Assembly (NCBI GenBank): GCA_031290855.1
Contig: JAISLM010000021.1
Span: 1-51,394 of the forward strand
Direction of reading: 5' to 3'
DNA: 51,394 nt
From: Spirochaetaceae bacterium
GTDB lineage: Bacteria > Spirochaetota > Spirochaetia > Treponematales > Breznakiellaceae
The notes below the pieces were generated by a model. That model was not told where the DNA came from. It searched no databases and worked only from the letters and a program-made list of their open reading frames with translations. The stretch's first letter is position 1. Each line of letters starts with the position of its first letter. Shown piece by piece: positions 1-36,257 of this stretch. The position numbers and the translations under genes were made by a program.

Positions 1-1336
1 CGTCCCCCAAACATCAACTCCGCCAGGCGTTGCAGAACCCCACCGTCGACATCAAAACCTACGGCGTCTACGGCCTGTTCTCCTTCCTCCTCACCGATGA
101 AATCCGCTCCCTTGAGCGCGCCCTAGGAAAACCACTGGCCGACACCCTTCTGTCCTTTGCCCTGACCAGATGGGCCTACCAGTCGCCAATAAAACGGGCT
201 CCCTTCTATCACGCCCACCATTGCAGGTCCGACGTATGGAATGCCGATACGGCGCTGACCGACAAAACCCTCAGCGCCGCGCTGAAATCAGTTGGGGAAA
301 ACCGGCAGGCGGTGGTGCAGTGGCTGAAAGGATTGCTGCCCCCATCGGCGGCCGGGGAATCGTTCCTCCTTATGGATTCAACCCACGTGATGAGCGCGTC
401 GGAACAGCTGGAAGTAAACACGAAGGGCTACAATAATTCCTTTGACTTTGGGAAACAAGTGCGGCTGATGTATCTGTTTTCCGCCAAGATGAAGCTGCCG
501 GTCTATTACCGGCTTTTGGGCGGAAACATCGTGGATGTGGCGGCCATGGCCCTGTGTGTGGAGGAAATGGGGCTTTCCGACGTGGTATATATCGCCGACA
601 AGGGCTTCTACAGCGCTGCCAACGTGGCGATGCTGGAAGCGCGACATCTGCGGTATATCATTCCGGTCAGGCGGGACAACCGGCAGATAGACTATAGCCC
701 GCTGGAGGACGGGGAGTTCAAGGCGAAGCACGGCCGGTTCGTCTGGCAAGGGAGAATCATCTGGTGCTATCGGCACGAGGCTGGGGGGCAGGCGTTTGTC
801 ACGTATCTTGACGACCGGCTTCGAGTGGAGGAGGAACAGGATTACCTGGTCCGTATCACGACCCATCCTGACGCGTACACGGAGGAGGGATACCGGGAAC
901 GGCTGCGGCGGTTCGGGACCTTGACGCTGACCTATCATCTGGAGGGGGAACGCGGTCCCGAAGAAGTCTACACGGCGTACAAGCGGCGGAACGAGATAGA
1001 GATGATGTTCGACAGTTACAAGAATTTCATGAAGGGGGACGTGACGTATATGCAAAACCGGTATGTGCTTGAGGGGTGGCTTTTCGCGAACTTTCTGGCG
1101 ATGATGGCCTGGTACAAATTGTATGACAAGTTGAGGGAAGCGAAGCTGCTGGGGAACTACTCGCCGAAGGACATGATAGAGATGAGCAAGACGGTGTACA
1201 AGCTGAGGATAGGGGGAACATGGCGTCTGGCTGAAGTTACCGCCAAGCTCAGAAAGCTGCTCGTCAAAGCCGGAATAGACTACCTAAATGAGCGGAGTTA
1301 GGGCTTAACATACGGAGAAAAAAGGGAAAGGAGCCG
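1..1336 (+). mobile_element. Right part of an insertion sequence (transposase plus ~31-nt terminal sequence)
   Basis: Nt 1306-1336 (TTAACATACGGAGAAAAAAGGGAAAGGAGCC) directly follow the transposase stop. They recur in the opposite orientation at 25950 and 31218, consistent with an IS terminal repeat. The left end lies outside the window. Confidence 0.5.
3..1301 (+). CDS. IS4-superfamily (IS1634-like) DDE transposase, N-terminus cut by the window edge
   Basis: ORF 30..1301 stays open back to nt 3. It has DDE-type blocks LLMDSTHV and VYIADKGFYS. It has an exact Y-2-R-3-E-6-K signature (YKRRNEIEMMFDSYK), typical of IS4-type transposases. Confidence 0.75.
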   Translation, partial: SPKHQLRQALQNPTVDIKTYGVYGLFSFLLTDEIRSLERALGKPLADTLLSFALTRWAYQSPIKRAPFYHAHHCRSDVWNADTALTDKTLSAALKSVGENRQAVVQWLKGLLPPSAAGESFLLMDSTHVMSASEQLEVNTKGYNNSFDFGKQVRLMYLFSAKMKLPVYYRLLGGNIVDVAAMALCVEEMGLSDVVYIADKGFYSAANVAMLEARHLRYIIPVRRDNRQIDYSPLEDGEFKAKHGRFVWQGRIIWCYRHEAGGQAFVTYLDDRLRVEEEQDYLVRITTHPDAYTEEGYRERLRRFGTLTLTYHLEGERGPEEVYTAYKRRNEIEMMFDSYKNFMKGDVTYMQNRYVLEGWLFANFLAMMAWYKLYDKLREAKLLGNYSPKDMIEMSKTVYKLRIGGTWRLAEVTAKLRKLLVKAGIDYLNERS

Positions 1337-1452
1337 AACCGGAAAGTACCTTCGACCTTCCGGCGGAGCGGCGGAGGGCTTTTCGTCAGGTAAAATTTTT
1401 ATGGGTAAAGTTTAGCGCGGAGCGGCGGGGGAGCAGACCCCACTGCGAATAA
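1334..1452 (+). repeat. Right part of a family-B repeat fused to a family-A core (copy B1/A1)
   Basis: CCGAACC...GTAAAGTTTAGCGCGGAGCGGCGGGGGAGCAGACCCCACTGCGAATAA aligns with 14255-14400 and 26665-26722. The A core GGCGGGGGAGCAGACCCCACTGCGAATAA is at 1424-1452. Confidence 0.7.
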
Positions 1453-2821
1453 AACCCGCTCTGGGAAGGTGAATGCCACTGGCAGCCGCCGAAGAGAGGC
1501 GGGTTAGGTGGGCGAATTTGGAACGGAGCGCGATTGACAGCGGTATCAGTGCGCCTATGAATGCGAGAGGTCCCGCGAAACAGAGGCCGGTATAGCCGAA
1601 AAACGATGTAAGTATCAGCGCGGCGAATGTCCGCATCAACAGTTCCATCACGCCGGCAAGCGTGGGTACAAGGCTGTCGCCCAGCCCCTGTAAGGTCTGC
1701 CGTGTGCAGAACAGCAGCGCGAGCAGCGAAAAAAATACGCCTGTTACCTTTAGGTACCTGTGAGAGAGGCGGATAGCTTCCTGCTCGCCATGCAAGAAAA
1801 CAGCCGCTATCCTGTCCCCGAAAAAAAAGAACAAAAGTCCCATCACGACACTGAAGCCAAGTGCAATTGTGAGACCCTGCGCCACGCCTTTCTTTATCCG
1901 GTCATACTTTTTCGCGCCGAAATTCTGCGCGGCAAACGTCGTCATAGCCTGACCGTAGGAGCTTAGCGGCATCGTCGCAAGCTGGTCTATCTTTTGCCCG
2001 GTAGTGAAGGCCGCCACAGCCGCGTAACCCAGCCCGTTCAGCGCAAAGGTGACGGCGACCGCCCCTATAGCGATGATGCTCCACTGAAAGCCCACCGGCA
2101 ACGCTATTTTCACATGACGTATGATTTCCGCCACGTCCAGCTGGAAGTCGCCCTTCCCCGGCGCAAGCAGCGGGAAACGTTTCTTTATTGCCGGTATGCA
2201 GGCGAGCGCGGCAAAAAACTGGGAGATCACGGTCGCGATCCCCGCTCCCGCCACGCCGCTTTTGAACACAAGGATGAAGAGATAGTCTAGGGCGATGTTG
2301 ACTATGCAGGCGATTACAAGGAAGTACAGCGGCGTCCTGCTGTCGCCGACGGCGCGCATCATATTTGACAGCAGGTTGAACAGGGTGATGGCCGGCATAC
2401 CCCACAGCATCACGACAAAGTAACTGTAGGCATATTCGTATATCCGCTCCGGCGTGTTCAGAAGGCTGAGGAGGGGACGTAAGGTCCCTATGCTGAAGGC
2501 CATCAGCACCACGGTAACCGCCGCCCCGATCACAAGGCTCGCCACAAAACTTCGTTTAACGCCGGCCACATCCCCTGCGCCGTAGCGCTGGGACGTGATT
2601 ATCGCGGCGCCGGACGTAACGCCGATGATAAAGCCGAGTATCAGGAAGGCCAGACTGCCCGTACAACCTATCGCGGCGAGAGCCTCCATCCCTATCGTCC
2701 TGGCCACGATAAACGAATCTGCCATGTTGTAAAGTTGTTGAAACAGGTTTCCGATTACAAGCGGCACCGCAAAGGCGAATATAAGCGCGCCGGGCGGTCC
2801 CACGGTTAGATTCTTTGTCAT
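1412..2821 (-). CDS. MATE family efflux transporter
   Basis: Polytopic membrane protein with a typical MATE N-terminus (PLVIGNLFQQLYNMADSFIVARTIG). The start was moved to the internal ATG at 2821 (MTKNLTV...). The last ~25 codons are encoded by the B/A repeat. Confidence 0.88.
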   Translation of the reverse strand: MTKNLTVGPPGALIFAFAVPLVIGNLFQQLYNMADSFIVARTIGMEALAAIGCTGSLAFLILGFIIGVTSGAAIITSQRYGAGDVAGVKRSFVASLVIGAAVTVVLMAFSIGTLRPLLSLLNTPERIYEYAYSYFVVMLWGMPAITLFNLLSNMMRAVGDSRTPLYFLVIACIVNIALDYLFILVFKSGVAGAGIATVISQFFAALACIPAIKKRFPLLAPGKGDFQLDVAEIIRHVKIALPVGFQWSIIAIGAVAVTFALNGLGYAAVAAFTTGQKIDQLATMPLSSYGQAMTTFAAQNFGAKKYDRIKKGVAQGLTIALGFSVVMGLLFFFFGDRIAAVFLHGEQEAIRLSHRYLKVTGVFFSLLALLFCTRQTLQGLGDSLVPTLAGVMELLMRTFAALILTSFFGYTGLCFAGPLAFIGALIPLSIALRSKFAHLTRLSSAAASGIHLPRAGFIRSGVCSPAAPR

Positions 2822-7768: not shown

Positions 7769-7861
7769 CAATGAGGGATGAGGGGCCGCCGACACGGAAC
7801 TTGCCGGGCGGTCGGGGTCTGACCCTATCCCGGCCTAAATCTTTACCCGGTAATGATTTAG
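7769..7861. repeat. Direct repeat copy 1 (~93 nt) upstream of tex
   Basis: CAATGAGGGATG...GGCCGCCGACACGGAACTTGCCGGGCGG.CGGGGTCTGACCCTATCCCGGCCTAA.TC.TTACCCGGTAATGATTTAG recurs at 7878-7988. Confidence 0.85.
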
Positions 7862-7877
7862 CGCGACAAGACGCGTA

Positions 7878-7988
7878 CAATGAGGGATGTGTGTGTAAGG
7901 GGCGGGTACCGGCCGCCGACACGGAACTTGCCGGGCGGGCGGGGTCTGACCCTATCCCGGCCTAAGTCGTTACCCGGTAATGATTTAG
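7878..7988. repeat. Direct repeat copy 2 (~111 nt, carries a ~21-nt insertion)
   Basis: Near-identical to 7769-7861 apart from inserted TGTGTGTAAGGGGCGGGTACC and 3 substitutions. It contains the REP-like core GGGGTCTGACCC. Confidence 0.85.
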
Positions 7989-8114: not shown

Positions 8115-8150
8115 GAGGCTTTCCCAAAACTGAAGTTTTGGGAAAGCCTC
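8115..8150. repeat. Perfect 16-bp-stem palindrome (GAGGCTTTCCCAAAAC-TGAA-GTTTTGGGAAAGCCTC)
   Basis: Read directly. The inner module CCCAAAAC-TGAA-GTTTTGG recurs at ~8309, ~11113, ~21050 and ~31286. Confidence 0.9.
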
Positions 8151-8178
8151 TACTGTCATATTATAATTTTACCAGTGG

Positions 8179-8336
8179 AGACTGTTCCAAAACTAATTGA
8201 CTGTGCGCTAAAGCGCGCGGTTTTGGACCAGGCTCTTGCAGTTTTTCAGGCTAAAGCCTTGCAAAACCGCGTTTTTTAAAGGTTGCTGGACAAGCGAAGC
8301 TTGTCTCCCCAAAACTGAAGTTTTGGAACAGCCTCA
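8179..8336 (+). repeat. Family-D dispersed repeat, copy D1
   Basis: Aligns along its length with 20908-21081 (CCAAAACTAATTGACTGTGCGCTAA...AAGCTTGTCTCCCCAAAACTGAA.TTTTGG.A.AGCCTCA). Confidence 0.85.
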
Positions 8337-8565
8337 GTGAGTCAGGTTATTTTTTGACAGTTCCCTAGGTTCGCGCTTGCCGCGCGGAGGCTCATTGCTG
8401 CCGCCGGTGTCGTATTCGCTTGGAGTAATGCGTATGCGCCTAAATTGGTAATATTATACTGCCAACCTCTAACGTTACGCTGTAAATCTTGATGCTAAAA
8501 GAGCCTGCCCGATTTTGGTAACGCTTTCCGGAATAGTTGCGCCGGCAAGCGCCTACGGCGGGCCG

Positions 8566-11103: not shown

Positions 11104-11262
11104 CCAGGGGCTTTCCCAAAGCTTCAGTTTTTGGGAGACAAGCTTGCCTGGGAGACAAGCTTGCTTGGGAGACAAGCTTGCTTGGGAGACAAGCTTGCTT
11201 GTCCGGCTACCTTAGATTTATATGAAAAAGCGGGCCGGACTAAAGTCCGTTTAGACCGCTTT
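11104..11262 (+). repeat. Family-E dispersed repeat, copy E1
   Basis: CTTTCCCAAAGCTTCAGTTTTTGG...CTTGTCCGGCTACCTTAGATTTATATGAAAAAGCGGGCCGGACTAAAGTCC aligns with 31281-31392. Confidence 0.85.
11133..11200 (+). repeat. Tandem repeat, 4 x 17 bp (GGGAGACAAGCTTGCYT)
   Basis: Four head-to-tail units read directly. The homologous locus at 31307-31342 has only 2 units of 18 bp. Confidence 0.9.
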
Positions 11263-13232: not shown

Positions 13233-13285
13233 AAATGAATCTTCCCGCCCCGAAGGGTGGGGGAGCAGATCCCGCTGCGAATCAA
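13233..13285 (+). repeat. Family-A repeat, short hairpin form (A2)
   Basis: AAATGAATCTTCCCGCC-CCGAAG-GGTGGGGGAGCAGATCCCGCTGCGAATCAA. It has the same 5' and 3' blocks as A4/A5, with the ~110-nt interior replaced by a 6-nt loop. Confidence 0.8.
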
Positions 13286-13346
13286 CGACTGCCACAGGGC
13301 GGGGCTTTACAGTTTTTCCCGCTTGCGTCATGCTTAACGGAGCCGA

Positions 13347-13401
13347 GCGGCGTGTATCGCGTAAGTCCAGGCAGACTTACGTGGTATACGCCGCTTTTTT
13401 T
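13347..13401 (+). terminator. Strong intrinsic terminator (21-bp stem plus T7)
   Basis: GCGGCGTGTATCGCGTAAGTC-CAGGCA-GACTTACGTGGTATACGCCGC followed by TTTTTTT. The three non-Watson-Crick positions are all G-U on the plus-strand RNA. Confidence 0.75.
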
Positions 13402-13639
13402 CCGTAAGGCCGTCGGGATGGCGGAAAACCATCAAGTTTTTACCGGACCGGGCTTTCCCCGCGTAAACGGGACGAGGTGCGCCGGCTCTGTAACCTGCGC
13501 GAAAGTACGGTAACGAAAGGCGGGCTTTGGGAGGACGACAGGGTATCTTTTTTCCCAAAAAGATGCGCTGGTATGAAAACTTTCGGACGCCGCGTCAGTG
13601 TTTGTTGGCATGACGCGATCATTATTGGGAGGATTAACC

Positions 13640-13861
13640 ATGGAGTATGAACTGATACGGGAAATAATCAACCCCTGTGCCGGCGACAGGAGGCCGGAAG
13701 TGCTGGTCAGCGATGTTGAAAACGGGGATTTGGACACTTATGTCCGAAACCTGTTTGCAGGTCAGGAAATATCGTTTACGAAGATAGAGAAGCCTTCAGG
13801 TTCCGTTGTATACGAACTGGCGACGGGCGAACTTAAACACCGTTTGACGTTTACGCCGTGA
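13640..13861 (+). CDS. Small hypothetical protein (73 aa)
   Basis: ATG preceded by GGGAGG at -7 to -12. MEYELIREI...TFTP has non-repetitive, balanced composition. No function is recognisable. Confidence 0.45.
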   Translation: MEYELIREIINPCAGDRRPEVLVSDVENGDLDTYVRNLFAGQEISFTKIEKPSGSVVYELATGELKHRLTFTP

Positions 13862-14090
13862 CTGTGTCAACGTGCGGCGCCGAGCCGCTTGTGGCGTATC
13901 CTCTTTTGACAGGCGATTTACGTTGCTCCAATGTACGGAACAGGATGTTCGACAGAATGACTCTAACGCCGGTACTGATATAGTGCAAAACCGCCTTAGG
14001 CGCTATCGATGTAACCTTTTCGTGGGGCTTACGGCGGCGGCCTGTGTCGCCGGGATACGAAGCCGGTTTCGATAGAATATGGCGCTGAAC

Positions 14091-14213
14091 GGAGTTTTGA
14101 TTCTGCCTTTGGCGCTGCCGCCCACGCCTTTTTCCGATGACGCCGGTTTTTTAAGGGCGGGTTTGGCGGCTCAGACTATAACGGTACTGCCGGCGAAAGA
14201 AGCGGCGGCATAA
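14091..14213 (+). pseudogene. Fragment of an M28-like peptidase paralog
   Basis: Encodes ...[32 protein letters not shown], matching residues [31 protein letters not shown] of the 21718-22653 gene. Weaker DNA similarity extends back to ~13900. Homology stops exactly where repeat B2 starts. Confidence 0.75.
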
Positions 14214-14316
14214 TCCGCCCGGAGAACCGCAGCAGGCCGCCATTTCCTCCCCAAACCGAACCGTTCCAGGGGGACACGTCTGCCCTGAAAGCCGAATTTT
14301 GGACCAGGTTTAGAGC
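14209..14316 (+). repeat. Family-B repeat, copy B2
   Basis: CATAATCCGCCCGGAGAA...CATTTCCTCCCCAAACCGAACC...CCAGGGGGACACGTCTGCCCTGAAAGCCGAATTTTGGACCAGGTTTAG aligns with 26618-26722. Confidence 0.85.
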
Positions 14317-14347
14317 AGAGCGGCGGGGTATTACACCCGCGCTTTAC

Positions 14348-14400
14348 AATAAACCTCCCCGCCGCAGAGCGGCGGGGGCGCAGACCCCCACTGCGAATAA
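14348..14400 (+). repeat. Family-A repeat, short hairpin form (A3)
   Basis: AATAAACCTCCCCGCCGC-AGA-GCGGCGGGGGCGCAGACCCCCACTGCGAATAA. Confidence 0.8.
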
Positions 14401-20308: not shown

Positions 20309-20907
20309 CCCGCTGGTCCCGTCCGCCGCTTTACATACGCGCCTTGATCCGCAAGAGTCCTTGAAATAAACGAATGAGCCTCCGCACGGTATCTTAAGCG
20401 TTGTGTTGGTTGGAGCGGAGGCTCGATCGGATGCGGAAGTTTATAATATCGTCTGGTTTAATACAAAATCTTTGTAGTCGTTGCCTTACTTGAGCCGCGG
20501 CAAGCGCGAACCTAAGGTTCGGCGGGGTATTAAACCAGACTTTGCGAATAAAATATAATGGAGTACGGGCAAACTGCACATAACTCGGCAGCTTTGCTGC
20601 CGCAGACTGTTTACGCTTTTTTGTCCTGCCGGACAAACCGGGCGGTAGACGGCTCGGCCTCCGCAACGGCCCCGGTCTCGCTACGCGCCCCAGCGCAGCA
20701 GGGGAACATTCCCGCGCCTCCCTCCTTTTATGGCAAAGCAGGCGGGTCAAACATCGGGTAAAACCGCTTGACGCGGTTTTGTGGCACAGTTTGTCGGCCC
20801 TGGAAATGCTACGCATTTTTCTATTCGGGCCGCCAAACCGTCATCGAACCGCAGGTTCGCAACAGCCGGAACGTTACGCGAAATTCCTGCTAAAATGATT
20901 AACAAGT

Positions 20908-21081
20908 GAGCCTGTCCCAAAACTAATTGACTGTGCGCTAACGCTCACGGTTTTTGCTCAGGCTTTTGCAGTTTTTGAGGCCTTCGGCCTTCAGATTTTC
21001 ATACTTGCAAAACTGCGAACTTCAAGGTTGCCGGGCAAACAAAGCTTGTCTCCCCAAAACTGAATTTTTGGGAAAGCCTCA
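20908..21081 (+). repeat. Family-D dispersed repeat, copy D2
   Basis: Aligns with 8179-8336. The internal hairpin loop differs (TAAA in D1, CTTCG plus an extra ~15 nt in D2). Confidence 0.85.
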
Positions 21082-21721: not shown

Positions 21722-22653
21722 CGCAGGTGTCCGTTCCAAGAGAGGGAACGGTCAATTCAGCCAAACCCTCCCCGCCGTACCATCGTTTTAACGACTTCGT
21801 TGATACCAAAAACGATAGGTTTGAGGTGCTTATATCCCTGCTTGACGAACTGAAACTGCATGTTTCCGTTGTTAACATTTCGGGGAAACGGCATATCTTT
21901 GTCGCGCCCTCGTCGTACACGTTCCAGCCGGCGGAAAAGAAACTGCTGACCGTGCTGGCCGCGCATTACGACAGGATACCGGAAAGTCCGGGTGCGAACG
22001 ATAACGGGGCGGCGGTCTTTATGCTGATAGACGCGGCGATCCGACTGCGCGGTCGCGCCGCCGGAGAATGGCTCATCATCTTTACCGACAAGGAAGAACT
22101 GATGCGCGGCGAAGGGATCCGGTCCCAGGGTTCGTACCTGCTTGCGCAGGGTTTGAGCAAGGCGGGTCTTGAAGCCGGCAGATTTTTTATTTTTGACGCC
22201 TGCGGGCGGGGCGATACACTGATAATTTCCAAAACGGCAGGCCATCTGTTAAAGAATTACCATAGCGGGGAGGTCGCGCCGCTCAAAAACCGCCTCCGCC
22301 TGTTGCAGCTTAGGGCAATGGACGCGGCAAAAAACAGCCTTGACGGGCGCTTTCTGTTGCTGCCGACGCCTTTTTCTGACGACGCCGGTTTTTTGCTGGC
22401 CGGCATGGCGGCGCAGACGATAACGGTGCTGCCCGCAAAAGAAGCGGCGGACTTTTCCGCCGTCGTCCGCAGAAACGATTTGTACGTCAATGCCCTTATC
22501 TGCGGCGAGCAGCAGCGGCGGCGCGGCATGGACCATATCCCGCAGACGTGGCGGCTGTTGAACGGCCCTGAAGATACGGCCGCAATGCTTGACGGCAATA
22601 ATTTTGAGAACGTAGTACAGTTTGCCCTTGAACTGTGCCGCATGGATACTTAA
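21718..22653 (+). CDS. M28-family (Zn exopeptidase-like) protein
   Basis: [26 protein letters not shown] and FTDKEEL resemble M28 metal-ligand blocks. The usual SDH motif reads SDD. The GTG start overlaps the infA stop (GTGA). Confidence 0.6.
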
Positions 22654-22800
22654 GAAGCCGACTATAAGCCGGCCCGCCTCCCGCCCCCCTTTGCGAATGA
22701 AGTTGTTTAAGGCGTATTTAGACCGTACCGTAAAAGATGCCTGATACCAATAGATGGAAGGGAACCGGCTTACGCTCATAAAAAGTTAACTGTTCACTTA

Positions 22801-22966
22801 AAATGAACCTCCCCGCCACAAAACAGCGTCAAGCTTCCGCGTGTGTATTGTGCCACCGGCACAATACACAACGGCAAACCGCGATGCGGTTTGTGCCTGA
22901 CGTTTTATTTCCTGCCTAACCTTATAAGGAGGGACAAGGCGGGGGAGCAGACCCCACTGCGAATAA
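22801..22966 (+). repeat. Family-A repeat, long structured form (A4, 166 nt)
   Basis: Aligns end to end with 25692-25859. The closing stem is CCCCGCC/GGCGGGG. Internal hairpins are GTGTATTGTGCC-ACCG-GGCACAATACAC and GGCAAACCGC-GAT-GCGGTTTG(T)GCC. The 3' block is GGGGGAGCAGACCCCACTGCGAATAA. Confidence 0.9.
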
Positions 22967-23151
22967 ACGCGTCATATTGATACATATATCACTTTGAAAC
23001 AGTACGTTGTGTCAATCTTACACTATTGCTGATTAAACAGAAAATATAACGGATGGTTCCGCCGAGAATAAAACAGGGGTCAAGTCATGTAAATCTATGT
23101 GCAATAACAATTTAACATGAAATATATCCAACTGCCCGATATTTGTATGGT

Positions 23152-25691: not shown

Positions 25692-25859
25692 AAATGAACC
25701 TCCCCGCCACAAAACAGCGTCAAGCGTACGCGTGTGGATTGTGCCGCCGGCGCAACCCACAACGGCAAACCGCTATGCGGTTTGTGCCTGACGTTTTACC
25801 TCCTGCCTAACCTGATAAGGAGGGACACAAGGCGGTGGAGCAGACTCCGCTGCGAATGA
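25692..25859 (+). repeat. Family-A repeat, long structured form (A5, 168 nt)
   Basis: By eye it differs from A4 by ~15 substitutions and one 2-nt indel. Confidence 0.9.
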
Positions 25860-25949
25860 GCCTCCACGCGGCAAGCCCTAAACTTGACCCGCAAAATATT
25901 TCCTGACGAAAAGCTCCCCGCCGAGCCGCCGGAACGGTGTTTCCGGTCC

Positions 25950-26013
25950 GGCTTCTTTCCGTTTTTTCTCCGTATATTAAAGCAAACCGCGGGTTAATCG
26001 CCAATATATTTAC
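25950..26013 (+). repeat. Family-F module (IS-end-like), copy F2
   Basis: GGCTTCTTTCCGTTTTTTCTCCGTATATTAAAGCAAACCGC...TATATTTAC aligns with 31218-31280. Its first ~31 nt are the inverse of 1306-1336. Confidence 0.75.
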
Positions 26014-26613
26014 ATGAGACATTTAAGAATGCTGAAACAGGGCGTGTGGTACGAAATCAGTACCCGCGTCAACAACCGGGAACCCCTGTTTCGCGGGGGC
26101 CGGGCCCCGGCTCTGTTCGACCGGGTGTTCCGTGAGACCGCGAACAGGTTTGTCTTCGCGGTCCGGGGCTTAAGTCTTGCCGGCGACCGGCTGGCCTTTT
26201 ACATCAGGCCCGCGGACGGGTTCGAGCTGCCCGCGATAATGAAATGGCTGAAGCAGACCTTCGCCATTAGGTACAACAGGGACAATGGACGGACGGGACA
26301 CCTGTGGGGCGACCGGTACTGGTCGCGGATCCTGGAAGGGGAGCCGCCGGACGGCGTGGAGGCGGCGGGGGACTCCCCGGCCCTCTGCGGGGTCAGACCC
26401 GTAATCGGGCAACGCCTCGCAGGACGCATGGCGGCGGGAGTCCCGCCGGACGGCGGCAGGGTCAGACCCCACAGCGGGGAACGCCTCGCCGGACGCATGG
26501 CGGCGGGGGACTCCCCGGCCCTCTGCGGGGTCAGACCCCGCAGAGGGGAACGGACTGCCGGGGCCGCGTTTTCCCGTCTATACCCACTTACCATCGCCCC
26601 GGCGCCCGGATAA
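26014..26613 (+). CDS. IS200/RAYT-like Y1-transposase homolog, probably inactive
   Basis: GVWYEISTRVNNREPLF and GHLWGDRYWSRIL match conserved blocks of REP-associated tyrosine transposases. The HUH position reads LAFYIRP. The C-terminal third is a 69-bp tandem repeat instead of the catalytic-Tyr region. There is no RBS. Confidence 0.55.
   Translation: MRHLRMLKQGVWYEISTRVNNREPLFRGGRAPALFDRVFRETANRFVFAVRGLSLAGDRLAFYIRPADGFELPAIMKWLKQTFAIRYNRDNGRTGHLWGDRYWSRILEGEPPDGVEAAGDSPALCGVRPVIGQRLAGRMAAGVPPDGGRVRPHSGERLAGRMAAGDSPALCGVRPRRGERTAGAAFSRLYPLTIAPAPG
26361..26560 (+). repeat. Tandem ~69-bp repeat (~3 units) built from palindromes
   Basis: GGTCAGACCCC...GGAACGCCTCGC.GGACGCATGGCGGCGGG recurs at 26391 and 26460. 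GCGGCGGGGGACTCCCCGGCCCTCTGCGGGGTCAGACCC recurs at 26362 and 26500. It includes the perfect palindrome CTCTGCGGGGTC-A-GACCCCGCAGAG (26521-26545). Confidence 0.85.
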
Positions 26614-26617
26614 ACGG

Positions 26618-26722
26618 CATAATCCGCCCGTAGAATCTTAGCGGCCTCCATTTCCTCACCACACCGAACCCGCCCAGGGGGATACGTCTGCCCTGAAATC
26701 TGAATTGTGGGTCAAGTTTAGC
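26618..26722 (+). repeat. Family-B repeat, copy B3
   Basis: Starts 5 nt after the RAYT-like stop with CATAATCCGCCCG. It aligns with 14209-14316. Confidence 0.85.
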
Positions 26723-26750
26723 TTTGTATAGGGTGGGGGTGTTCCATTTT

Positions 26751-31120: not shown

Positions 31121-31217
31121 CGCTCATAATAGCTGATAAATCCGTTTGTTGGTAAGTGGGGCGGCGTATGAATGAAGCTCCACGCCGCGCTTCGGGCCGG
31201 AAGGGCCTTTCCGCTTA

Positions 31218-31280
31218 GGCTCCTTTCCCTTTTTTCTCCGTCCGTTAAAGCAAATCGCAGGCAGGCGCCCGTATATTTAC
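31218..31280 (+). repeat. Family-F module, copy F3
   Basis: GGCTCCTTTCCCTTTTTTCTCCGTCCGTTAAAGCAAATCGC...GTATATTTAC aligns with 25950-26013. Confidence 0.75.
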
Positions 31281-31392
31281 GGGACTTTCCCAAAACTTCA
31301 GTTTTTGGCGGACAAGCTTCGCTTGGGAGACAAGCTTCGCTTGTCCGGCTGCCTTGGATTTATATGAAAAAACGGGACGGACTTTAGTCCAT
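31281..31392 (+). repeat. Family-E dispersed repeat, copy E2 (2 x 18-bp tandem at 31307-31342)
   Basis: Aligns with 11104-11262. Confidence 0.85.
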
Positions 31393-34913: not shown

Positions 34914-35984
34914 CTAGTTTTCCAGGATCAGTTCGCCGGAACGCAGACGGGATAACATCTCATGTTGTTTCTTTCGGACGGAATCGCTTACGGCGGCGGC
35001 GTACAGCGGGTCATCCTCGATAAAATCGACATAAGCGTCCCGTATGCCCACAACTTCCGCCTCTCCGAAAGACAGTTTCCCTTCCAAAAAGAGCTTCGTC
35101 CTGCTGTAGGCCGCCCTGTCCTGAAGCAGGACGCAACTGCCGACGATGTAGGGAGGCCGCACCGCATAGCCGTTTGTGTCGAACCAGACGATCCGGGCCC
35201 TGTCCGTCCCGGCCTCCACCGCCGCCTGCACCGCGCCTTCGTTTGCGCCGCCCGCGACGCACAGAAGCACGCGGGCGCCCGCCTTGATCATGCCGGCGGC
35301 AAGCTCGGCGCATTTGGCCGCGTCGTACCAGTTACCGACAACCCTGAAGTCAACCGCTATGCCGGGATCCACGGCAAGCGCGCCTTCGCGGTAGCCGGGC
35401 AGTATAGTTTGCAGCATGGCCGGGTACTCCTGGGCGGCGATAAGCCCCACCCTGCCGCCGCCCGCCTCGGCGGCGACCAGCGCGGCGAGATAGCCGGCCA
35501 TGTAGGCCTGCTCCCGCTGGTTGTACCTGAGCGTGTATATGCCGGGATCGCCTGAAAGCTCGCCGTCAAGCAGCAGGAAGCGCTGCGCCGGAAATTTGGC
35601 CCGCACGGCCCGCGCAAGTTCCGGCAGGGACGGGTTGGACGACACGATCAGATCGTAAGCGCCGCTTGCCGCAAGCGCGGTAAGTTTCGCTTCCCATTCG
35701 GCCTGGTTGTAGCCGCCTTCGATCACCTGCACCGTTACAGGCTGACCATCGTCCGCAGCGTTGCGCTCGTCGGCGGCCCACTTCACGCCCTCGGCAAGCA
35801 TCTCGTAGATAGGACTACCCGAAGCCGCGCCCGGTATGAACACGGCAATCGATACGGACTTTGTCCCCGTTTGCGCGGCAGGCCGGGCCGTTGAAGGCTG
35901 CCTGGGTTTGCAGGCGGCAAACACTAAAGTCGCGGCGATCAGCATGACCGCCATTCTTTTTTTCCTGTTAATATTTTCTTTCAT
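34914..35984 (-). CDS. BMP-family ABC substrate-binding lipoprotein (RfuA-like, riboflavin inferred)
   Basis: Lipobox LVFAAC and a BMP/PnrA/TmpC-like sequence. An FMN riboswitch lies immediately upstream. Confidence 0.85.
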   Translation of the reverse strand: MKENINRKKRMAVMLIAATLVFAACKPRQPSTARPAAQTGTKSVSIAVFIPGAASGSPIYEMLAEGVKWAADERNAADDGQPVTVQVIEGGYNQAEWEAKLTALAASGAYDLIVSSNPSLPELARAVRAKFPAQRFLLLDGELSGDPGIYTLRYNQREQAYMAGYLAALVAAEAGGGRVGLIAAQEYPAMLQTILPGYREGALAVDPGIAVDFRVVGNWYDAAKCAELAAGMIKAGARVLLCVAGGANEGAVQAAVEAGTDRARIVWFDTNGYAVRPPYIVGSCVLLQDRAAYSRTKLFLEGKLSFGEAEVVGIRDAYVDFIEDDPLYAAAVSDSVRKKQHEMLSRLRSGELILEN

Positions 35985-35986
35985 GT

Positions 35987-36136
35987 CTCTTTTCTCCCAT
36001 CCGGACTGTACCGTCGGCGCCGGAATTTCACCGGTTCAGTCCAAAAACCCTTTTGAGGCCCCTGGAGTCGCGGGCTTTAACCGCCGGTCGGGATTCACGA
36101 AGCCTGACGGCTTTGCGCTAACCCTACCCCGAAAAT
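35987..36136 (-). promoter_or_regulatory. FMN riboswitch (RFN element)
   Basis: The minus strand reads UUUUCGGGGUAGGGU...GUGAAUCCCGACCGGCGGUUAAAGCCCGCGAC...GGACUGAACCGGUGAAAUUCCGGCGCCGACGGUACAGUCCGGAUGGGAGAAAAG. This matches the conserved RFN blocks. The 3' P1 strand contains the GGGAG Shine-Dalgarno, 9 nt before the ATG. Confidence 0.85.
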
Positions 36137-36257
36137 TAATTTGTATTATCACCCGGAAACCGAAATTCCCGAATGAATCCAGCATAATTTATCCGTGCCG
36201 GGATGACAAGCGGTTCCGCCGGCGCCGTAGAAAAAGAGGCAGGCCCGCCATTTAAAT

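Follow-up and report, generated by a model that had tools for sequence, protein, structure and literature searches.

A lineage-restricted family of hairpin-ended intergenic repeats with constant ends and exchangeable interiors in termite-gut spirochaetes

The locus and the two long copies of Family A

The stretch analysed here, hereafter the window, comprises 51,394 nucleotides of contig JAISLM010000021.1 (positions 1 to 51,394 of the forward strand, assembly GCA_031290855.1) from a Spirochaetaceae bacterium. It is an ordinary chromosomal stretch carrying rpoBC, polA, fliG, tRNAs, transporters, and a sigma factor gene, the product of which is 89-97% identical to the versions in Spirochaetaceae metagenome-assembled genomes (MAGs) and about 65% identical to those of Treponema primitia and Breznakiella. 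Lying between the genes is a family of repeats whose long form, Family A, is represented by two copies, A1 and A2. A preliminary description, made from the letters alone, had presented Family A as a structured element with long and short versions that resembled a functional RNA or a substrate of single-stranded DNA recombination more than a random duplication. Motif maps and alignments of the window and of related loci (denoted below by L numbers) show that the constants of the family are its ends alone.

A1 (22801-22966) and A2 (25692-25859) could be aligned end to end with 90.4% identity over 166 columns (92% over the first 136 nt) and a single 2-nt indel, as had been described. In keeping with the shared fold and closing stem proposed earlier, one architecture was predicted for both, consisting of a closing stem (CCCCGCC/GGCGGGG), an inner stem (GCGTCA/TGACGT), a 13-bp hairpin, a 9-bp hairpin, a third stem, and a 4-bp tail hairpin (GCAG/CTGC). 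The predicted folding energy as RNA was -70.6 kcal/mol for A1 (z = -6.0) and -68.3 kcal/mol for A2 (z = -4.2). Folded as DNA, A1 gave a z-score of -6.2, and its minus strand (-75.8 kcal/mol, z = -5.6) folded as well as its plus strand. The tail of A2, ending in ...CTGCGAAT, directly adjoins GAGCCTCC..., the left arm of another family member.

In total, the 51 kb of the window hold five complete members, beginning at 13234, 14348, 20373, 22802, and 25693, together with fragments (Table 1). The terminal motifs gave 4-6 matches in the window, against 0-0.25 expected from shuffled sequence. The plus strand carries all five complete copies and, in addition, the 3' half of a short copy. This 3' half begins exactly where the end of an insertion sequence (IS; ...GTTTAG, 1414) stops, and is thus explained as a short copy split by an IS that inserted into its loop. 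The two short versions at 13234-13285 and 14348-14400 do keep both terminal blocks and the closing stem, and the two long and two short copies listed in the preliminary description all stand, but that list was incomplete, having missed the 3' half at 1415-1453, the member at 20373-20552, and the fragments.

Constant ends, exchangeable interiors, and fixed junctions

The left end follows the consensus AAT^GA(A/G)CCTCC(C/A)CGCC (the caret marking the element boundary), which in the A form reads AAT^GAACCTCCCCGCC. In the right end, a 19-nt tail, GAGCAGACCCCACTGCGAAT^AA(A), comes after the GC hairpin arm GGCGGGG; across the family the tail reads (G)AGCAGACCCCACTGCGAAT^AA(A). Between these ends lies a dispensable interior that takes at least four unrelated forms, ranging from 3 to about 170 nt. 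In the C-type copies, each end has a hairpin of its own, the two being near-identical in sequence and of the same polarity, as illustrated by L068, where the left-hand hairpin is CCTCGCCC-TAAA-GGGCGAGG and the right-hand one CCGCCC-TAAA-GGGCGG. Pairing of the left arm of the first such hairpin with the right arm of the second gives rise to the closing stem of the short and A forms. Every type is found by a covariance model built from the ends only, the one copy missed being the C-type copy of the window with its diverged tail.

Three further long copies were recovered from related loci, namely L072 2661-2834, L086 15071-15211, and L086 20362-20510, the last being cut by the end of the locus. 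The copy at L086 15071-15211 is without exactly the 13-bp hairpin, which is therefore dispensable. The five A-type copies occupy five different contexts in at least three assemblies with 88-98% identity to one another, and copies as similar as 96-98% are present in different contexts. Throughout the family, copies are intergenic and their flanks unrelated. The alignments and motif maps uphold the earlier notion of a modular long/short family with conserved ends, and random duplication does not account for it.

The distribution of the family is restricted. When 596 Gb of genomes were scanned for the tail, most matches arose by chance because the search pattern is short; the true matches, in which the tail was accompanied by the hairpin, amounted to 13 spirochaete loci, exclusively in Spirochaetaceae and Treponema MAGs from the termite gut. 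A metagenome scan for the tail yielded one match, by chance, inside a coding region, and two scans of viral contigs yielded chance matches only. Many of the related contigs end in family elements. No account of the family was found in the searchable literature or in Rfam, and to that extent it is previously undescribed.

The junctions of the elements are as constant as their ends. Every copy has the left junction ...NAAT^GA(A/G)CC, in which the base preceding AAT varies. At the free right junctions, GCGAAT is followed by A in 17 of 18 cases, by a second A in 15, and by a third in 12. Where members abut, the junction reads CTGCGAAT^GAACC or ^GAGCC (L086, L072, L081, and A2), and such head-to-tail arrays share the AAT, the next element beginning right after that of its predecessor (e.g., L086 20365/20366). 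The AAT flank is thus invariant in all copies, with conservation running on into the right flank (AAA). No terminal inverted repeats (TIRs) were found on comparing the left end GAACCTCCCCGCC with the reverse complement of the right end, ATTCGCAGTGGGGTCTGC, complementarity being confined to the hairpin arms.

The site of A1 was compared with four loci carrying an orthologous sigma-factor gene (L118-L121; 79-88% nucleotide identity within the gene). A1 is absent from all four, and the promoter-proximal block that they have in common starts at window position 22969-22971, only 5-7 nt past the right end of A1. Directly before this block stand AAAAAT^AAGG in L118 and GAAAAT^ATGC in L121, sequences that are compatible with an unoccupied AAT^A site and support the right boundary of A1. 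Beyond this point in the upstream direction, the window and the four loci show no relationship to one another. No uninterrupted copies of joined flanks were found within the data set.

About 100 nt upstream of A1, the sequence ...CCCGCCTCCCGCCCCCCTTTGCGAAT^GAAG (22660-22698, plus strand) may be what is left of the tail of an older family member, in which case that intergenic region would have received insertions repeatedly. The 1.1 kb that separate the two short copies (13286-14347) resemble debris, with a segment (14116-14219) 82% identical to part of an M28-peptidase-like gene (22358-22461), an IS right end on its own (14206-14313), and one half of a further hairpin element (14314-14347).

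Table 1. Family members, their structural parts and interior types, and neighbouring IS-related units (window coordinates unless an L number is given; a caret marks an element boundary)
Feature	Position	Strand	Remarks
A1, long copy	22802-22966	+	covariance-model match 85.8 bits
A1 left end	22802-22817	+	AAT^GAACCTCCCCGCC
A1 closing stem	22810-22817 / 22938-22945	+	
A1 inner stem	22825-22831 / 22898-22904	+	
A1 13-bp hairpin	22840-22872	+	
A1 9-bp hairpin	22874-22894	+	
A1 third stem	about 22908-22934	+	
A1 tail	22947-22964, then AA	+	GCAGACCCCACTGCGAAT
A2, long copy	25693-25859	+	90% identical to A1; covariance-model match 74.5 bits
S1, short copy	13234-13285	+	both ends, single hairpin, 4-5-nt loop
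S2, short copy	14348-14400	+	both ends, single 9-bp hairpin
C-type member, about 180 nt	20373-20552	+	left end AAT^GAGCCTCCGC...; one hairpin on the left and another on the right; tail diverged, ...GGCGGGGTATTAAACCAGACTTTGCGAAT^AAAA
3' half of short copy	1415-1453	+	loop remnant, GGCGGGGG, tail
Left arm of IS-interrupted family member	25855-25877	+	AATGAGCCTCCACGCGGCAAGCC; loop filled by 845-bp IS-like unit; matching right arm GGTGGGGGTGTTCCATT at about 26732-26748
Isolated left-end fragment	8368-8396	-	AATGAGCCTCCGCGCGGCAAGCGCGAACCT; sole minus-strand family piece in window
Interior, short form			3-7-nt loop
Interior, 22 nt	L086 9579-9654		
Interior, Family A			110-nt multi-hairpin insert
Interior, C-type	L050, L066, L068, L086 20201-20365, L121 2486-2655, several Nm470_bin15 contigs, window 20373-20552		unrelated 120-170-nt insert
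IS-like unit, 845 bp	25878-26721	+	17-nt TIRs CTAAACTTGACCCGCAA / TTGTGGGTCAAGTTTAG; neighbour of A2, outside the A element
RayT-like open reading frame	26014-26613	+	about 155 nt downstream of A2
3 x 69-nt tandem repeat in RayT-like gene	26361-26567		many GGGGTCAGACCCC palindromes
DDE_Tnp_1 transposase gene	30-1301	+	then, at 1305-1415, the left 110 nt of the RayT-like unit in inverted orientation
Loop-insertion junctions	1414/1415, 25877/25878, 26721/26722; L086 9849/9850, 10619/10620; L089 590/591		

Mobile DNA, retained repeat, or RNA gene

Taken together, Family A probably represents the long version within a family of small, hairpin-ended mobile DNA elements that are non-autonomous and lineage-restricted, the ends being the functional parts and the interior cargo. 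The elements would spread as DNA, entering between AAT and A(A)(A). With AAT^AAA restored on the right by each insertion, the head-to-tail arrays would find an explanation. The lack of TIRs, the like-oriented subterminal hairpins, the asymmetric single-stranded extensions, and the lack of a demonstrable duplication make an enzyme that recognises folded single-stranded ends the most likely agent, for instance a Y1/HUH transposase of the IS200/IS605 or REP-RAYT kind (repetitive extragenic palindromic sequences, REPs, and their REP-associated tyrosine transposases) acting in trans. Roughly half of the confidence placed in mobile DNA extends to a Y1/HUH mechanism specifically, which is accordingly put forward as a tentative candidate. 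The internal hairpins of the A form would then be cargo, maybe kept palindromic by ordinary hairpin-templated correction rather than for the sake of encoding an RNA. Of the two identities first suggested, that of a substrate for single-stranded DNA recombination or transposition fares well, as the anatomy, with its asymmetric ends lacking TIRs, its hairpins close to either end, its short and fixed insertion motif, and its head-to-tail arrays, fits it better than it fits an ordinary TIR-bounded miniature inverted-repeat transposable element (MITE).

Several observations weigh against this reading. About 200 kb of related DNA yielded no transposase gene bounded by family ends, the window and some 150 kb of related loci yielded no autonomous relative with the same ends that encodes TnpA (Y1) and/or TnpB, and the sole nearby Y1-type gene is without catalytic motifs. 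Inspection by eye of either strand disclosed no convincing pairing of a guide tetranucleotide with a cleavage site in the style of IS608. The bias towards the plus strand rests on six copies in one window, and both orientations are present in L086. A clean empty site for A1 could not be recovered from the four sigma-factor loci, the left flanks of which are not syntenic, so that the absence of a duplication is indistinguishable from a 3-bp duplication of AAT. Finally, two compensatory changes reveal some pressure to keep the 13-bp hairpin, which could also be explained by selection on an RNA.

Among characterised systems, the closest parallels in anatomy are the ends of IS200/IS605 elements with their gene-less derivatives, the palindrome-associated transposable elements (PATEs), and the REP and BIME sequences. 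Like the IS200/IS605 ends and PATEs, the family has no TIRs, its C-type subterminal hairpins are near-identical on the left and right with the same polarity, it has asymmetric single-stranded extensions with no demonstrable duplication, and there is a bias towards one strand in the window. Insertion would, moreover, take place beside a fixed short motif, and the end of the element bears a related one (AATGA within the left end and AATAA at the right junction). Unlike those systems, no tnpA or tnpB copy bounded by family ends and no demonstrable pairing of guide and cleavage site were found, many members have a single hairpin, and the interiors are swapped rather than merely deleted.

The rival that survives best, though unlikely, is a REP-like element retained by the host and no longer moving, the GC hairpins of which would bind a host protein or stabilise or terminate mRNAs, the interiors having arisen by recombination and nested insertion. 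All copies are indeed intergenic, the hairpins are GC-rich, and an abundant protein of hairpin-binding type, catalytically dead by its motifs, is encoded beside several copies. IS-like units also enter the loops, in line with the report that REPs serve as targets for some enterobacterial IS (PMC1525189). Nevertheless, no T-run follows the hairpin, which leaves no intrinsic terminator, the orientation of copies with respect to genes is inconsistent, the head-to-tail arrays and the fixed AAT^AAA junction indicate insertion events, and copies with 96-98% identity occupy different contexts.

The comparison with REP, BIME, and REPIN sequences and their RAYTs (PMC2817692, PMC3337134, PMC3733652) is similarly divided. 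The family shares with them the many short GC-rich intergenic hairpins, the mosaic clusters with other repeats, the targeting of loops by IS, and a RAYT-like gene beside some copies. In contrast to REPs, its feet are GAAC/CCTC and GAGC with no GTAG or CGTC tag, it is not arranged in inverted doublets, and it carries the conserved 19-nt 3' tail, while the adjacent RayT-like protein is without the HUH histidines and the Y..NP helix and is encoded in multiple copies within a TIR-bounded unit of its own.

Next in plausibility, and improbable, is a multicopy structured non-coding RNA, be it the guide or scaffold of a transposon-encoded nuclease or recombinase (omega-RNA-like or bridge-RNA-like) or a small regulatory RNA, with the 5' block and the 3' tail as functional single-stranded regions. 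In its favour is the strong fold common to the copies. In addition, the 3' tail stops exactly at the element boundary, as would the scaffold of a guide RNA encoded at the right end, and the neighbouring Y1-like gene has a similar motif, GGGGTCAGACCCC, in its 3' portion. Covariation was assessed in the alignment of the five long copies, in which 94.5% of cells are paired. Compensatory change is seen in two pairs, both in the 13-bp hairpin (hairpin 1), a result equalled by 29 of 500 column shuffles, and in 10 of 52 pairs, broken cells are the sole departure.

One-sided changes bear on the strand that folds. The TT of one copy and the CC of the other do lie opposite the same GG, as had been described, and this would favour an RNA read from the plus strand. 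However, the argument for plus-strand folding built on it does not hold: changes yielding A.C, which are tolerated on the minus strand only, number about 5 events among the five long copies, as against 2-4 for G.U with the TT/CC site included, and the minus strand of A1 folds equally well. The plus strand can therefore no longer be singled out as the folded one.

Further evidence against an RNA comes from the surroundings and the members themselves. No element match reached the gathering threshold in an Rfam search of the whole window, and at E<=10 two elements returned only sub-threshold chance matches, which agrees with the earlier statement that no known RNA family could be recognised. Neither a sigma-70-like promoter nor an intrinsic terminator was detected within 22801-22966, the upstream flanks of copies are unrelated, and the orientation of copies is not tied to adjacent genes in the window or in L086. 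The window contains no TnpB, IscB, or IS110 gene. In most members the structured interior is absent or replaced wholesale, and one long copy is without an entire hairpin. With covariation this weak and no strand bias in the changes, the functional RNA of the preliminary description was not borne out.

Three narrower identities were tried and rejected. An intrinsic terminator was discarded as there is no T-run after the stems. A small protein was considered on the strength of a 38-aa open reading frame (ORF) starting at the ATG of the 5' block; it has no ribosome-binding site and does not occur in the short forms, the frame being open in A1, A2, and the L072 copy and frameshifted in the L086 copy that is without hairpin 1. 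A template/variable repeat pair of a diversity-generating retroelement was likewise rejected, the differences between copies not being limited to adenines and the elements being non-coding.

It is quite improbable that the family is an ordinary MITE moved by a DDE transposase, such as that of the DDE_Tnp_1 element at 30-1415, with AAT as its 3-bp target-site duplication. AAT does stand on both sides of every copy, and the window contains a DDE transposase and many IS-end fragments. The ends, on the other hand, are not inverted repeats of each other, and the termini of the DDE element and of the RayT-like unit have another sequence, CTAAACTTGACCCGCAA. The AAT is, furthermore, invariant across sites, with conservation extending into the AAA of the right flank, unlike a duplication. 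Neither TIRs nor a parent IS was found, so the elements have not proved to be the ordinary MITEs that the preliminary description had named as the outcome that would overturn it.

Pneumococcal BOX (boxA-boxB-boxC), ERIC, and the neisserial NIME and Correia elements are modular intergenic repeats. The present family resembles them in having long and short versions, conserved terminal modules, variable or insertable middles, strong predicted folds, and a lineage-restricted occurrence. Where the mechanism of such repeats is known, there are inverted terminal repeats and duplications of TA or a similar sequence, neither of which the present family has.

An integron attC-like or other site-specific recombination site is scarcely credible, since an imperfect, strand-asymmetric hairpin with conserved ends, a variable 50-170-nt centre, and a function that would sit in the folded single strand are offset by the lack of an RYYYAAC/GTTRRRY core in the ends and of an integrase or cassette array in the window, and by the scattering of copies among housekeeping genes. 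Judged by the features that define each class, the family belongs with neither REPs, TIR-bounded MITEs, nor attC sites, and answers to the IS200/IS605 description in part.

Neighbouring units and wider significance

The RayT-like ORF downstream of A2 gave weak matches to the Pfam family Y1_Tnp (26 bits) and to the NCBIfam model for REP-associated tyrosine transposases (27 bits against a cutoff of 80). It has 857 homologues, nearly all in termite Spirochaetaceae MAGs, with several per contig and many annotated as 'RayT'. Searches of PDB sequences with the protein and its profile returned no matches. In the AlphaFold model, the first ~105 residues (pLDDT, the per-residue model confidence, 80-90) form a beta-alpha-beta-beta-alpha-beta core, and a fold search of the PDB gave as its best matches (probability 1.0) the transposases of ISDra2, IS608, and IS200 and the RAYT of E. 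coli. The motifs were compared by alignment to distant relatives that retain YHV, NH[FVI]H, and Y[IV]xxNP. The RayT-like family has YEI for YHV and R-L-A (or W-L-T) in place of both HUH histidines, and instead of the tyrosine helix (Y..NP) it has a variable run of GVRP repeats, encoded by the 69-nt tandem repeat. By the catalytic criteria of its own family, the protein would appear to be inactive, and the RayT-like gene alone is not a credible mobiliser of Family A.

The 845-bp unit that carries this gene is conserved in five loci, and its left end matches 1305-1415 in inverted orientation with 80% identity over 111 nt. The DDE element seems to have one end in common with the RayT-like unit, which may be a passenger-carrying, non-autonomous relative of the DDE_Tnp_1 IS. 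Solo ends are also present at 14206-14313 and 31175-31280. The layout of the unit is closer to the 'TIRtron/TIRYT' arrangement than to REP-RAYT, but its protein lacks the catalytic motifs that TIRtron/TIRYT proteins keep (PMC3733652).

At no fewer than three loci, in addition to the junction at 1414/1415, IS-like units lie within the loops of family hairpins (GAASCTCCCCGCC, 6-9 nt, CTAAAC...), from which it follows that the hairpins of the family are insertion targets for that IS. By analogy with IS that enter REPs, this suggests a loop-targeted mode of insertion. IS1397 and ISKpn1 are examples of IS inserting into enterobacterial REPs.

A more speculative proposal, to be regarded as a long shot, is that the hairpin repeats and the abundant, catalytically dead RayT-like protein form one system. 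The protein, borne on a TIR-bounded unit that enters the hairpin loops, would still bind the folded ends and would guide or license another enzyme to move the repeats, or else control them. The A-type element would then be no inert cargo but a ligand made of folded single-stranded DNA or RNA, such as a guide or scaffold that stands alone. If true, a degenerate HUH domain and a family of non-autonomous repeats would here be partners in a new kind of arrangement.

Other features of the window lie apart from the family. A second, unrelated intergenic repeat family is built around CCCAAAACTGAAGTTTTGGGAAAGCCTC (8123-8336, 11107-11248, 20899-21081, and 31281-31390), part of which is a 17-nt tandem array, TTGGGAGACAAGCTTGC, of about 4 copies at 11131-11215. 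Just downstream of a Tex-like gene, two 78-nt direct repeats (7784-7988; 96% identical and 127 nt apart) contain GGGGTCTGACCC. A flavin mononucleotide (FMN) riboswitch (88 bits; 35985-36140, minus strand) lies directly upstream of genes for a Bmp/PnrA-type binding protein and an ABC transporter (34914-35984 onwards), a combination that would fit a spirochaete Rfu-type operon for riboflavin uptake.

If the reading of Family A as mobile DNA is right, uncultured termite-gut spirochaetes carry undescribed hairpin-ended mobile repeats with a fixed insertion motif and freely exchangeable interiors. Such elements would break MAG assemblies, could pass for RNA genes, and would mark hot spots of intergenic rearrangement. 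Their poor fit to REPs, TIR-bounded MITEs, and known IS200/IS605 derivatives may point to an unrecognised mobilising enzyme. More surprising still than the repeat family itself is a by-product of this analysis, namely the co-resident expansion of a Y1-fold protein without catalytic residues.

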